Shown here in pieces: positions 1-44,416 of a stretch of 64,000 nucleotides of DNA. The stretch lies in assembly GCF_030013595.1 (NCBI RefSeq), contig NZ_CP122768.1; one strand, written 5' to 3'. Source of the stretch: Escherichia coli. GTDB lineage: Bacteria > Pseudomonadota > Gammaproteobacteria > Enterobacterales > Enterobacteriaceae. A program made the position numbers and the translations under genes. Below the pieces are notes generated by a model. The model was not told the origin of the DNA, did not search any database, and worked only from the letters and a program-made list of their open reading frames with translations. Positions within the stretch are counted from its first letter, which is position 1. Each line of letters opens with the position of its first letter.

Positions 1-243
1 GAGTCCATGACCTTATCTGTCTGATTCCGCCACTCTGTGCCGGTTTACTGCACCGGCACATCCCCCCTCCGGCAAAATTTGTCCAACCTGTTGTACTCAA
101 TAAGAAAAAATCCGTGCGCTGATTCACAAATTTGTGCGTAATTTCTCCAGTCCGTTGGACGAGGAGCGGGATTTGATGCGCTTCACAATTTTACTCCCCC
201 TGAGCAACGAGACTGATTCCAGTATCTAAGACTGGAGTCCAGT

Positions 244-1027
244 ATGTTGGAATCAAGCAAAGTTCCCGCCCTAACACGGGCTATTGATATTCTCAATTTG
301 ATTGCCCGCATTGGCCCCTGTAGTGCTGCGACGATCATTGACACATTGGGGATCCCTAAAAGCACGGCCTATTTGCTGCTTAATGAACTCAGGCGTCAGC
401 GTTTTCTTAGCCTTGATCACCAGGAAAATTTTTGTTTGTGGACCAAGCTGGTGGAGCTTTCCGGTCATGCGTTAAGCAAGATGGATCTCCGGGAACTGGC
501 TCGACCGCGTTTGACGCAACTGATGGATACCACCGGGCTGTTATGTCACCTGGGGGATTATTGATAACGGCAGCGCTTATTACATTTTGAAAGTGGAGTC
601 ATCAGCCACTATCAGCGTGCGTTCCCATGAAGGAAAAAGCCTTTCGCTTTATCGCTCCGGAATAGGTAAATGCCTGCTTGCCTGGCAACCTGCAGCTGTA
701 CAGCAAAGTATTATCGAAGAGCTGGTCTGGGAGCAGATGACACCCACCACCATTACCCATCCACAACGGCTCTACGAGGAACTGGCGCGTATTCGCCGTC
801 AGGGCTGGAGTTATGACAACGGCGAAGATTATGCTGATGTCCGTTGTGTCGCTGCGCCGGTGTTTAACGCCAATAACGAGCTTACCGCTGCGATTTCGGT
901 GGTCGGTACCCGCTTACAAATCAATGAAGAATACCGTGATTATCTGGCGGGCAAGGCCATTGCCTGCGCCAGGGATATTTCACGTCTGTTGGGATGGAAA
1001 AGTCCCTTTGACTTACAGGCCTCATAA
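244..1027 (+). pseudogene. rhmR: IclR-family regulator of the L-rhamnonate operon, split by a +1 frameshift
   Basis: ORFs 244..564 (frame 1, HTH part) and 587..1027 (frame 2, effector part) together make a ~260-aa IclR-type protein. Removing one G from the GGGGG run at 552..556 joins them in frame (..LCHLG-IIDNGSAYYILKVESS..). Confidence 0.75.
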
Positions 1028-1041
1028 CAATGGAGAACATT

Positions 1042-2247
1042 ATGACCCTACCAAAAATCAAACAGGTTCGCGCCTGGTTTACTGGCGGTGCGACAGCAGA
1101 AAAAGGCGCTGGCGGCGGTGATTATCACGACCAGGGGGCAAATCACTGGATTGATGATCATATTGCCACCCCGATGAGTAAATACCGCGATTACGAGCAG
1201 TCACGCCAGTCATTTGGCATTAACGTTCTTGGCACGTTGATTGTTGAAGTCGAAGCAGAAAACGGCCAGACCGGATTCGCCGTTTCGACAGCCGGTGAAA
1301 TGGGCTGTTTTATTGTCGAAAAACATCTTAACCGTTTCATTGAGGGTAAATGTGTCAGTGATATCAAACTGATCCACGATCAAATGCTCAATGCCACCCT
1401 GTATTACTCCGGCTCTGGTGGCCTGGTGATGAACACGATTTCCTGTGTCGATCTGGCTCTGTGGGATCTGTTCGGCAAAGTGGTCGGGCTTCCGGTTTAT
1501 AAACTTTTAGGCGGCGCAGTTCGTGATGAGATTCAGTTCTACGCCACAGGTGCGCGTCCGGATCTGGCAAAAGAGATGGGCTTTATCGGTGGCAAAATGC
1601 CGACGCACTGGGGGCCACATGATGGCGATGCGGGGATCCGCAAAGATGCCGCTATGGTCGCGGATATGCGTGAAAAATGCGGTGAGGATTTCTGGTTAAT
1701 GCTCGACTGCTGGATGAGTCAGGACGTGAACTATGCCACCAAACTGGCCCACGCTTGCGCGCCCTATAACCTGAAATGGATCGAAGAGTGCCTGCCGCCA
1801 CAGCAGTATGAAGGTTATCGCGAACTGAAACGCAACGCGCCAGTCGGAATGATGGTCACCAGCGGTGAGCATCACGGCACACTGCAATCTTTCCGTACGC
1901 TTTCAGAAACCGGTATCGACATTATGCAGCCGGATGTTGGCTGGTGCGGTGGCTTAACCACGCTGGTGGAAATTGCCGCAATCGCCAAATCCAGAGGGCA
2001 ACTGGTGGTGCCGCACGGTTCGTCTGTTTACTCTCACCATGCGGTGATCACCTTCACCAATACGCCATTCAGCGAATTCCTGATGACCAGCCCGGATTGT
2101 TCAACGATGCGTCCGCAATTTGATCCGATTCTGCTTAATGAGCCAGTGCCGGTGAATGGTCGTATTCATAAATCAGTGCTTGATAAACCCGGTTTCGGCG
2201 TCGAACTCAATCGTGACTGCAATTTGAAACGCCCCTACAGCTACTAA
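1042..2247 (+). CDS. rhmD: L-rhamnonate dehydratase (enolase superfamily)
   Basis: ORF 1030..2247. The ATG at 1042 gives a ~401-aa product ([13 protein letters not shown]..); the upstream ATG at 1030 is an alternative. Identity from recall of the RhmD sequence. Confidence 0.85.
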
Positions 2248-2303
2248 TCACTCCGGGCGTTGCTGTGACAACGGTAACGCCCACATATTCTAAGGAGCTT
2301 TTT

Positions 2304-3593
2304 ATGAGCACCGCTTTGCTTGACGCCGTGGTGAAGAAAAACCGAGCGCGTATAATTCCGTTTATGTTGGCGCTGTATGTGCTGGCATTTCTCGACCGTT
2401 CGAATATTGGTTTTGCTAAACAGACCTACCAGATTGATACCGGGCTGAGTAATGAAGCTTATGCGCTGGGAGCAGGCATTTTCTTTGTGGTATACGCGTT
2501 TCTGGGGGTTCCGGCGAATCTTTTGATGCGCAAACTGGGGGCCAGAACCTGGATTGGTACGACAACACTGCTGTGGGGATTTCTTTCGGCAGCCATGGCA
2601 TGGGCCGATACTGAAGCGAAATTTCTGATCGTTCGTACTCTGCTTGGTGCTGCGGAGGCCGGGTTCTTCCCTGGTATGATTTATCTCACCTCGCAATGGT
2701 TTCCGCAGCGTAATCGCGCCAGCATTATGGGGTTGTTCTATATGGGCGCACCGCTGGCGTTAACACTGGGATCACCGCTTTCCGGCGCGCTGCTGGAGAT
2801 GCATGGATTTATGGGGCATCCCGGCTGGTTCTGGATGTTTGTGATTGAAGGATTGCTGGCAGTCGGCGCTGGGGTATTCACATTCTTTTGGCTTGATGAC
2901 ACACCGGAGCAGGCACGTTTTCTGAGTAAACAAGAAAAAACGTTGCTTATCAATCAACTGGCAAGTGAAGAACAACAGAAAGTGACTTCTCGATTGAGCG
3001 ATGCGCTGCGTAATGGCCGAGTCTGGCAACTGGCGATTATCTACCTGACCATTCAGGTGGCGGTTTACGGATTAATTTTCTTCCTGCCGACCCAGGTTGC
3101 TGCATTGCTGGGGACAAAAGTGGGCTTTACGGCGTCGGTGGTCACCGCCATTCCGTGGGTTGCGGCCTTGTTTGGGACCTGGCTTATTCCGCGCTATTCC
3201 GATAAAACCGGCGAACGGCGTAATGTCGCAGCGCTGACATTACTGGCGGCGGGCATTGGTATTGGTCTGTCCGGGCTGCTTTCTCCAGTACTGGCGATCG
3301 TAGCACTGTGTGTTGCAGCCATCGGGTTTATTGCCGTGCAGCCGGTGTTCTGGACGATGCCGACACAACTGCTTTCCGGTACGGCGCTGGCGGCGGGGAT
3401 TGGTTTTGTAAACCTGTTTGGTGCAGTGGGTGGGTTTATTGCCCCGATCCTGCGCGTGAAAGCAGAAACGTTGTTTGCCAGCGATGCGGCGGGATTACTG
3501 ACGCTGGCAGCGGTGGCGGTCATCGGTTCGCTGATTATTTTCACTCTGCGTGTAAATCGCACTGTTGCGCAGACCGACGTGGCACATCATTAA
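2304..3593 (+). CDS. rhmT: MFS transporter, putative L-rhamnonate transporter
   Basis: ORF 2265..3593. Start moved to ATG 2304, which is preceded by TAAGGAGC at 2291..2298. Multi-pass hydrophobic MFS-like protein of 429 aa. Confidence 0.85.
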
Positions 3594-3609
3594 TAGGTTA
3601 AGGAACACC

Positions 3610-4413
3610 ATGAACGCATTATTAAGCAATCCTTTTAAAGAACGTTTACGCAAGGGCGAAGTGCAAATTGGTCTGTGGTTAAGCTCGACTACTTCTTATA
3701 TGGCAGAAATTGCCGCCACTTCCGGTTATGACTGGTTACTGATTGACGGGGAGCACGCGCCAAACACCATTCAGGATCTTTATCACCAGCTACAGGCGGT
3801 AGCGCCCTATGCCAGCCAACCCGTGATCCGTCCGGTGGAAGGTAGTAAACCGCTGATTAAACAAGTCCTGGATATTGGCGCGCAAACTCTACTGATCCCG
3901 ATGGTCGATACTGCCGATCAGGCACGTCAGGTGGTGTCTGCCACGCGCTATCCTCCCTACGGTGAGCGTGGTGTCGGGGCCAGTGTGGCACGGGCTGCGC
4001 GCTGGGGACGCATTGAGAATTACATGGCGCAAGTCAACGATTCGCTTTGTCTGTTGGTGCAGGTGGAAAGTAAAACAGCACTGGATAACCTGGACGAAAT
4101 CCTCGACGTCGAAGGGATTGACGGCGTGTTTATTGGACCTGCGGATCTTTCTGCCTCGTTGGGCTACCCGGATAACGCCGGGCACCCGGAAGTGCAGCGA
4201 ATTATTGAAACCAGTATTCGGCGGATCCGTGCTGCGGGTAAAGCGGCTGGTTTTCTGGCTGTGGCTCCTGATATGGCGCAGCAATGCCTGGCGTGGGGAG
4301 CGAACTTTGTCGCTGTTGGCGTTGACACGATGCTCTACAGCGATGCCCTGGATCAACGACTGGCGATGTTTAAATCAGGCAAAAATGGGCCACGCATAAA
4401 AGGTAGTTATTGA
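3610..4413 (+). CDS. rhmA: 2-keto-3-deoxy-L-rhamnonate aldolase (HpcH/HpaI aldolase family)
   Basis: ORF 3565..4413. ATG at 3610 ([13 protein letters not shown]..) is preceded by AGGAACACC and gives 267 aa. Confidence 0.85.
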
Positions 4414-4419
4414 TATCAA

Positions 4420-4447
4420 AGGCCCATGGGGATCGGCTGTGGGCCTG
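4420..4447. terminator. hairpin between convergent rhmA and ypaA
   Basis: Inverted repeat AGGCCCA ... TGGGCCT immediately after the rhmA stop. Confidence 0.4.
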
Positions 4448-4453
4448 TGTTAA

Positions 4454-4675
4454 TTAGTGGTTATTCGCTGCCAGATCGGCTTCGCTTAGCTGGGTGGCCG
4501 CGAGCACCAGGTCACGATCAATGCCCTGTTCCAGCATGCGCAAGGCAATTTTAATGGCTTGTTCACGCATACCTTCCTGCAAACCTTCTAATTTACCCTC
4601 CTGCCAGCCTTCAAGCTTACCTTCCTGCCAGCCAATCTGATGCCCTTCCTGCCTCAGCCGTTCAGCAATAGTCAT
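4454..4675 (-). CDS. ypaA: small protein duplicating the Rpn C-terminal tail (YpaA / RpnS-like)
   Basis: 73-aa ORF ([31 protein letters not shown]..) about 85-90% identical at DNA level to the 3' end of rpnB. AAGGAGAG lies just upstream of the ATG at 4675. Confidence 0.6.
   Translation of the reverse strand: MTIAERLRQEGHQIGWQEGKLEGWQEGKLEGLQEGMREQAIKIALRMLEQGIDRDLVLAATQLSEADLAANNH
4572..4643. repeat. three 24-nt tandem units encoding G-W/L-Q-E-G-K/M-x-E octapeptides inside ypaA
   Basis: Period-24 repeat read directly from the sequence (ccttcctgccagcc...). Confidence 0.7.
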
Positions 4676-4687
4676 CAATCTCTCCTT

Positions 4688-5659
4688 TTAATGACAGTTC
4701 GGAATATCAGCATCAGTGAGTTGGGTTGTCGCCAGCACAATCTCACGTTCAAAGCCCTGCTCCAGCATGCGCAAGGCAATTTTAATGGCTTGTTCATGCA
4801 TGCCTTCCTGCAAACCTTCTAATTTCCCCTCCTGCCAACCTTCAATTTTACCTTCCTGCCAGCCTTCAATCTTACCTTCCTGCCAGCCAATTTGATGCCC
4901 TTCCTGCCGCAGCCGCTCAGCAATAGTCATCAATCTCTCCTTTTGTAGTGGTGAACGTTCGGCAATCTCCTGAATAAAACGGGTGAAACGGGAGGTATCG
5001 CCGCATTGCAGCAGATAATTAAACAGCGTTTGTAGCTGGCTGTCATTAGTGAAGCCTCTAACCAAAAGCGTGGTGATCCTGTCGACCATACCGATTAAAT
5101 CGCGGTCGCGAATATGCTTTTGAATCAGTTCAAGCAGAGCTATACGCCGATGTTGCATGATCTCATCGTCAGGTACGATGGTGATATCCACCAACGGAAA
5201 AGCTTCGGTGTACAACTGCCGGGCAAGTTGCGGATCGTCAAACTCATCCAGCCAGTTGAGTGAGTACGGGTAGGGCGAGGTTTCGCCATGATAAAACAGC
5301 AATGGCACCACCAGCGGAACTCTGTCATAGCCTTTATCCAGGTGACGCTGCATGGCGGCAGTGGCATAGCGCATTAGCCGAAAAGCCATATTCTTTTCTG
5401 CAGAGCTTTGATGTTCAATCACGCAGTAGATATAGCCTTCACTGTCGCTGGTTTCCACAGACCACAAAACATCCGAGTAGTAAGCGCGTAAACTTTTTTC
5501 AATAAAGCTGGTGGGTTCCAGGCGTAAAGTTTGCAGGTTGCAAAGCTTGCGCAGCGGCTCTGGTAGATGTATTTCCAGAAAATCCCGAGCGGTTTCGGGT
5601 GTGAACATAAAGGTTTTAAACACCGCATCATGCGGGGAGGAGGTTGTTGATTCGGTCAT
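4688..5659 (-). CDS. rpnB: Rpn-family (YhgA-like, PD-(D/E)XK) recombination-promoting nuclease
   Basis: 323-aa ORF with an N-terminal D..E-H-Q nuclease-like motif (YIYCVIEHQ) and a C-terminal WQEGKxEG repeat tail. An internal AAAAGGAGAG + ATG (MTIAERL..) near 4930 sits in frame with the tail. Confidence 0.8.
4801..4896. repeat. four 24-nt tandem units encoding the octapeptide repeat tail of RpnB
   Basis: Units at 4801..4824 (degenerate), 4825..4848, 4849..4872 and 4873..4896. Confidence 0.7.
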
Positions 5660-44250: not shown

Positions 44251-44416
44251 GCTGAAATCCACTAGTCTTGTCCGGTATATGACGATTATCAGAGGTTAAG
44301 GTGATGATTTCTCGGCGGTGTATCATATTCCAGAGAAGAGAGAACATTGCGGTAACACGCTTTTACCGCTACCTTAACCACACTCCATCGGTCACCTGAG
44401 GCGGAGCTTCGCCCCT

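Follow-up and report, generated by a model that had tools for sequence, protein, structure and literature searches.

A one-base insertion in the regulator gene rhmR (yfaX) of an Escherichia coli clone: a probable inherited frameshift upstream of intact rhmD, rhmT and rhmA

In the stretch of Escherichia coli DNA analysed here (64,000 nt, hereafter the window), the gene of the IclR-type regulator RhmR (YfaX) is split by an extra G in a short G run. The best overall explanation, held with good confidence, is that one G was gained in a GGGG run of rhmR, that this change was fixed in one clone, and that the regulator was lost. According to the proposed course of events, the G would have been inserted in the run at codons 104–105 of rhmR, probably by replication slippage on the short homopolymer, a one-G gain in a GGGG run being a classic outcome of strand slippage. 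The insertion would then have been fixed in a single clonal E. coli lineage that includes the window. Translation would now end at the TGA at 562–564, yielding a 106-aa fragment with the winged helix-turn-helix (HTH), and the rest of rhmR would be left out of frame, devoid of a convincing ribosome-binding site.

Apart from the G, the rhmR DNA of the window is identical to widespread intact alleles. Since rhmR carries no other change, the insertion event is likely to be recent. The mutation represents an ordinary, clone-specific frameshift pseudogene with nothing mechanistically new about it, and the 5-G allele is already known: it is present in public databases in the form of two adjacent “IclR family transcriptional regulator” genes. 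The significance of the finding is small beyond the annotation of the strain, where yfaX/rhmR should be marked as a frameshifted pseudogene, neither “corrected” nor recorded as two IclR-family genes, as is the case in some records.

Reading frame and domain content of rhmR

Positions 541–570 of the window read directly as ttatgtcacc tgggggatta ttgataacgg. With four Gs, the codons CTG GGG ATT ATT GAT (LGIID) belong to a continuous protein of 260 aa. With five Gs, the locus comprises the following features:

244..564, plus strand: 5' part of rhmR (yfaX), encoding the 106-aa truncated product (open reading frame list, translation, Pfam boundaries on the repaired protein)
552..556, plus strand: GGGGG run, site of the one-base insertion; GGGG in every other complete-genome allele examined (sequence)
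557..1027, plus strand: out-of-frame remainder of rhmR, residues 105–260 of the intact protein (translation, open reading frame list)
562..564, plus strand: premature TGA stop in the shifted frame (sequence, translation)

The run at 552–556 is the sole run of five or more G or C residues in rhmR. The open reading frame (ORF) 244..564 (plus strand) encodes 106 aa ending in ...LCHLGDY*, i.e., the winged HTH (residues 9–58), 30 residues from the start of IclR_C and an out-of-frame DY. In the ORF list, the second frame appears as 587..1027 (plus strand), a 146-aa product with a TTG start equivalent to residues 115–260, and the two frames are offset by +1 (244 mod 3 = 1; 587 mod 3 = 2). Translated from 557, the second frame starts IIDNGSAYYILK... 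and is open to 1027, the reading from this position being IIDNGSAYYILKVESS...; in the opposite direction, it is open back to the TGA at 521–523, i.e., from 524. Gene callers put the start of the C-terminal ORF at 587 or 617, and inspection of the candidate starts revealed no Shine–Dalgarno-like sequence upstream of TTG 587, GTG 593 or GTG 617.

These readings bear out an earlier note on this DNA, which had reported the GGGGG run and the split ORFs at the same coordinates and had recognized the gene as the IclR-type rhmR upstream of rhmD-rhmT-rhmA. Its proposal that deletion of one G restores an IclR-type protein holds as well: the exact repaired 260-aa sequence occurs on at least 1000 public contigs of the public protein collection, under the name of IclR family transcriptional regulator.

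In the repaired protein, Pfam HTH_IclR (PF09339) spans residues 9–58 (E=2.8e-08), in agreement with the precomputed Pfam hit of the 106-aa product, and IclR_C (PF01614) spans residues 75–247 (E=1.4e-62, model positions 2–174 of 174). A full-length alignment was obtained with the Thermotoga IclR structure 1mkm_A (E=8e-30) together with a match to KdgR 1ysp_A (E=2e-22); for KdgR, AllR, IclR and YiaJ, the crystallized constructs of the effector domain align from residues 74–81 onward. The HTH_IclR + IclR_C architecture is the same as in KdgR, IclR, AllR and Salmonella SL1344_3500/XynR. Still, the repaired RhmR is an orthologue of none of KdgR, IclR, AllR and XynR: the NCBIfam search yielded no equivalog for it, and its scores against BhcR, KdgR, PcaR, IclR and AllR all fell far short of the equivalog cut-offs.

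The break at codon 105 is situated 30 residues into IclR_C. The earlier note had described the split as one between an “HTH part” and an “effector part”; the frames of the two parts do differ, but the break does not follow the domain boundary, since codon 105 lies inside the Pfam-defined IclR_C. The 106-aa fragment keeps 30 of about 173 IclR_C residues, the second ORF lacks the first 40, and neither piece constitutes a complete effector domain. In functional members of the IclR family, both domains reside on one polypeptide of about 250–280 aa, and the window encodes no such polypeptide for rhmR. With the frame interrupted at codon 105, within IclR_C, the window holds, judging by its sequence, a pseudogene of an IclR family member. 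Compared with the E. coli YfaX/RhmR locus, the neighbours are the same (yfaY upstream; rhmD, yfaV/rhmT and yfaU/rhmA downstream), and the difference is in the frame, broken at codon 105 to give 106 aa and an unlinked remainder instead of 260 aa. Other truncated YfaX forms are also encountered in public data, e.g., products of 180 aa and 114 aa as well as a form with another +1 insertion located upstream.

The C-terminal domain of IclR-family proteins is responsible for the response to the ligand and for the oligomerization underlying operator binding. Since only an HTH fragment with a stub of the effector domain is left, and the remainder is out of frame and lacks a convincing ribosome-binding site, RhmR in the window is most likely a null regulator. 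One could also imagine that the 106-aa fragment retains DNA binding and operates as an effector-blind repressor, so that the operon is locked off. Such an outcome would profit from the retention of the complete HTH_IclR domain (residues 9–58) and the following helix, as well as from the dimer contacts to which, presumably, the DNA-binding domains contribute in the Thermotoga IclR structure 1MKM. However, the C-terminal domain is generally needed in this family for stable dimer or tetramer assembly and for cooperative binding to the operator, and a polypeptide cut off after the first 30 residues of a beta-rich domain is likely unstable. Overall, a permanently repressing fragment is considered unlikely, and the null regulator remains the preferred interpretation.

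Inherited mutation or assembly error

The earlier note had offered two origins for the extra G, a genuine mutation and a homopolymer error, and had called for comparison with other alleles. The comparison speaks for the former: the 5-G allele recurs in the clone, and four Gs are found elsewhere in complete genomes. The extra G is, very probably, a real mutation inherited within one clone, and the part of the earlier note invoking an error is not upheld, the same allele being present in five further samples, in sequence otherwise free of indels.

The 81-nt stretch used as the query is present in 3977 of the 5426 complete RefSeq E. coli genomes; none of these 3977 genomes with the locus reaches 99% identity over the 81 nt, and in the best among the matches listed, a one-base gap is the sole departure from the window. 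No match in the complete RefSeq E. coli genomes was obtained with a 41-mer having the run at its centre, for which a megablast seed is possible only if five Gs are present. Four Gs are therefore taken for the ancestral state, given the lack of a 5-G match in the 3977 complete genomes and the occurrence of the repaired protein on at least 1000 contigs.

The nearest complete relative, E. coli HCP5S3_I2 (NZ_CM149870.1), carries four Gs and an intact yfaX. Among the complete RefSeq E. coli genomes, two isolates from pigs in the UK match best (99.9%), both with four Gs; no identical genome was found. Over the 64 kb, 40 substitutions separate the window from NZ_CM149870.1, an IS3 element is present only in the latter, and there is exactly one indel of a single base, the G at 552–556. 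By this comparison, the window assembly is clean.

The exact 106-aa product is encoded on 48 public contigs from NCBI, Logan and UniRef (88 index blocks), and the matching C-terminal ORF on 49 contigs (81 index blocks). Six 5-G loci from five samples (L003–L008; GCA_001650605.1, GCA_021649405.1, GCA_017839865.1, SRR30668406 and SRR19716120) share the reading CACCTGGGGGATT. Over 2.4–11 kb, their identity with the window amounts to 100% or 99.98% (0–2 SNPs), with no indel in the stretches overlapping it and with all neighbouring genes intact. A small number of SNPs and an upstream indel of 13 bp distinguish these loci from one another and identify them as distinct isolates of one clone, not as one data set assembled repeatedly. 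A systematic error shared by these samples is improbable, the lack of any further indel in the loci speaking strongly against it. The nearest four-G genome is separated from the 5-G clone loci by 17 substitutions in 12 kb.

The opposite possibility is that sequencing or assembly of the homopolymer produced a spurious G, the strain actually possessing four Gs and an intact rhmR. On several platforms, indel errors do typically arise in runs of G, alleles resembling errors occur at the same site in public assemblies (GGG in L009–L014, five Gs in L015), and five Gs are found in no complete RefSeq E. coli genome. Nevertheless, the same allele was recovered from five other, independently assembled samples of the clone with intact neighbouring genes; moreover, no single-base indel other than the G separates the window from its nearest relative over 64 kb, and an error-prone assembly would display many such indels. 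A sequencing error is hence regarded as very improbable and was rejected, since the allele is clone-wide, the indel is the sole one and alleles of the error type look different.

The appearance of the latter is documented by the contigs serving as the error control. The GGG contigs (L009–L014) carry 2–9 indel events within 1–6 kb, mostly in homopolymers and mostly in the form of one-base deletions, and their neighbouring genes are split. Exact-sequence matching listed four contigs with the GGG allele, and six contigs were read; it gave a single contig for five Gs in the Arg68 background. In the GGG set, which includes two single-contig chromosomes (GCA_949812085.1 and GCA_949813125.1), the homopolymer deletions split yfaY, rhmD and yfaV. 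The contigs of this set appear to be unpolished long-read assemblies, and the truncated proteins derived from them pollute the protein collection.

L015, the only contig combining five Gs with a K-12-like Arg68 background, has one further homopolymer deletion, by which yfaY is split. Possibly, it is an assembly error as well, and a recurrence of the slippage thus lacks support. The related idea of a mutational hotspot with recurrent slippage was dropped, since the many other homopolymer indels of the GGG contigs mark these alleles as assembly errors. At the rhmR site, the indel load of the neighbouring sequence cleanly separates the real homopolymer mutation from alleles of the error type.

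Ribosomal slippage and phase variation at the G run

Even with a real insertion, full-length RhmR might be made in a useful amount by ribosomal +1 slippage, for which two routes are conceivable. By the first, tRNA-Gly would re-pair from GGG (553–555) to GGG (554–556), restoring the wild-type sequence exactly. By the second, the shift would take place at UAU-UGA (559–564) after the Shine–Dalgarno-like GGGGG, a configuration superficially similar to AGGGGG-UAU-CUU-UGA of prfB. The sequence is accommodating in several respects: GGG-G permits perfect +1 re-pairing; since the correct frame is open from 524, a +1 shift anywhere between 524 and 562 restores the protein; and a G-rich, Shine–Dalgarno-like element is located 2 nt before the last sense codon, beside the UGA. 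In addition, regulators are needed in few copies, so even a small leakage could matter.

The likeness to prfB, encoding release factor 2, comprises the G-rich Shine–Dalgarno-like element, the sense codon and the in-frame UGA, a +1 shift leading to the full-length product. It ends with the P-site codon, the spacing, the strong stop context and the non-conservation of the site and is, therefore, a resemblance only. Re-pairing of UAU to AUU is poor, unlike that of CUU to UUU at prfB, and UGA-U is an efficient stop context, unlike UGA-C. Together with the spacing of 2 nt (3 nt in prfB), these features are unfavourable for slippage. At the first site, the codon after GGG is GAU, i.e., there is no rare “hungry” codon. 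In other words, GGG-G offers perfect re-pairing and no slow A-site codon, and UAU-UGA offers a stop and a Shine–Dalgarno-like GGGGG at 2 nt combined with poor re-pairing. On runs of this kind, spontaneous slippage usually stays far below 1%.

A site of the prfB type would be expected to be conserved among orthologues. At rhmR, four Gs are present in every other complete-genome allele seen, with no 5-G allele detected in the 3977 complete genomes harboring the locus; this lack of conservation indicates that the run arose by recent mutation and did not evolve as a signal for recoding. Taken together, production of useful amounts of full-length RhmR by slippage seems highly unlikely. The same low probability is assigned to the clone being a leaky hypomorph, with a few full-length RhmR per cell, rather than a null; if true, it would represent a natural, fresh frameshift partly rescued by the very sequence creating it.

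Another function suggested by the run is that of a reversible on/off switch (phase variation) of rhamnonate-operon regulation. As in phase-variable loci, a length change of one unit occurs in a mononucleotide run inside a coding sequence, and in public assemblies the run length changes both ways. However, most of the other length variants belong to contigs full of homopolymer indels, L015 being the one with a single other homopolymer indel. Known contingency tracts typically comprise 7 or more units, so the run of 4–5 Gs is far shorter than these. Contingency loci are characterized by a long tract of mixed lengths within a clone; here, the tract is 5 nt, the clone members examined (six loci) all have five Gs and none has four, no within-clone variation being seen, and no variation was found in about 3977 complete genomes. 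Phase variation is considered very improbable, and the insertion fixed in one clone remains the preferred one.

The rhm operon and other features of the window

Downstream of rhmR, the window contains the following features:

1042..2247, plus strand: rhmD, L-rhamnonate dehydratase, intact (NCBIfam NF011968, 820 bits against a cut-off of 393; annotation of the relative)
2304..3593, plus strand: rhmT (yfaV), MFS transporter, intact (annotation of the nearest relative; MFS matches all below the curated cut-offs)
3610..4413, plus strand: rhmA (yfaU), 2-keto-3-deoxy-L-rhamnonate aldolase, intact (NCBIfam NF007521, 596.5 bits against a cut-off of 441)
4420..4446, plus strand: terminator-like hairpin 3' of rhmA (pattern scan; a consensus match only, without a good T-run)

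The rhmR stop is 14 nt away from the rhmD start. A regulator gene and the genes of L-rhamnonate dehydratase, an MFS transporter and KDR aldolase reside on the same strand, as expected of the rhm operon, and the hairpin at 4420..4446 probably marks its end. A sigma-70 promoter scan of positions 1–4600 found nothing. The nearest annotated genome likewise has rhmD, yfaV and yfaU after yfaX (“IclR family transcriptional regulator”). The only other difference between the window and its nearest relative in the rhm operon is the last codon of rhmD at position 2242: it is TAC (Tyr) in the window and in all 5-G clone loci extending that far (L003–L007) and CAC (His) in the nearest four-G relative.

In the literature, yfaX-rhmD-yfaVU is given as one transcription unit (PMC8743547), and the transporter, dehydratase and aldolase content of the operon matches the YfaX and YjhI regulons (PMC12445098). 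YfaX/RhmR itself figures only as a predicted regulator (PMC8743547, PMC12445098), which would be expected to bind the operon promoter and to respond to L-rhamnonate or a pathway intermediate. The ChIP-exo paper cited for RhmR (PMC8464067) does not mention yfaX, and the “RhmR” of Rodionova et al. (2013) is an unrelated LacI-type regulator from Chloroflexus.

Two effects of the insertion on rhmDTA may be envisaged. Firstly, the control by RhmR would be lost, with derepression as the probable consequence. Derepression is the better guess because the characterized relatives are mostly repressors, the closest ones (KdgR, IclR, AllR and Salmonella XynR) among them: KdgR, IclR and AllR are named as such, and Salmonella SL1344_3500/XynR is described as acting through gene suppression. 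Secondly, polarity is possible, as about 480 nt ahead of rhmD would turn into an untranslated leader. Because the yfaX-rhmD-yfaVU operon begins with rhmR, a fall in expression through polarity can be imagined just as well as derepression, and Rho-dependent polarity could reduce the expression of rhmDTA. The region 685–804 is moderately C-rich and G-poor (C 31–34%, G 21–26%), a composition that gives only a weak hint at a Rho entry site. Being naturally mutated in rhmR and retaining intact rhmD, rhmT and rhmA, the clone could be used to learn whether RhmR represses or activates the operon.

A match to positions 200–1100 of the window (yfaX and the start of rhmD) was detected in 3979 of the 5426 complete E. 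coli genomes and was lacking in the other 1447. By this count, the rhamnonate locus is absent from about 27% of the species and is dispensable in E. coli.

The region upstream of rhmR harbors several repeats. These include a perfect 12-bp palindrome, CACAAATTTGTG, at 125–136, a further AAATTTGT copy at 75–82, and the direct repeats GAnTCCAGTAT at 215–225 and 235–245. The start codon of rhmR is flanked by an 8-bp inverted repeat, TGATTCCA/TGGAATCA, at 214–221/248–255. These repeats represent candidate operators for RhmR or another regulator.

Beyond the operon, ten substitutions relative to the nearest relative are concentrated within 46 bp at 4826–4871, inside the ORF 4688..5659 (minus strand). 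This ORF is a Transposase_31/Rpn-type gene (“ISNCY family transposase” according to PGAP), the substitutions are confined to its QEGK(I/L)EGW repeat part, and a truncated paralogous copy is situated beside it at 4454..4678. The cluster looks like a result of gene conversion or repeat reshuffling rather than of point mutation. Finally, at 44306–44310, the window has an empty site where, between atoS and rcsC, the nearest relative possesses an IS3-family element of 1.3 kb; the alignment blocks of the two sequences overlap there by 5 bp.
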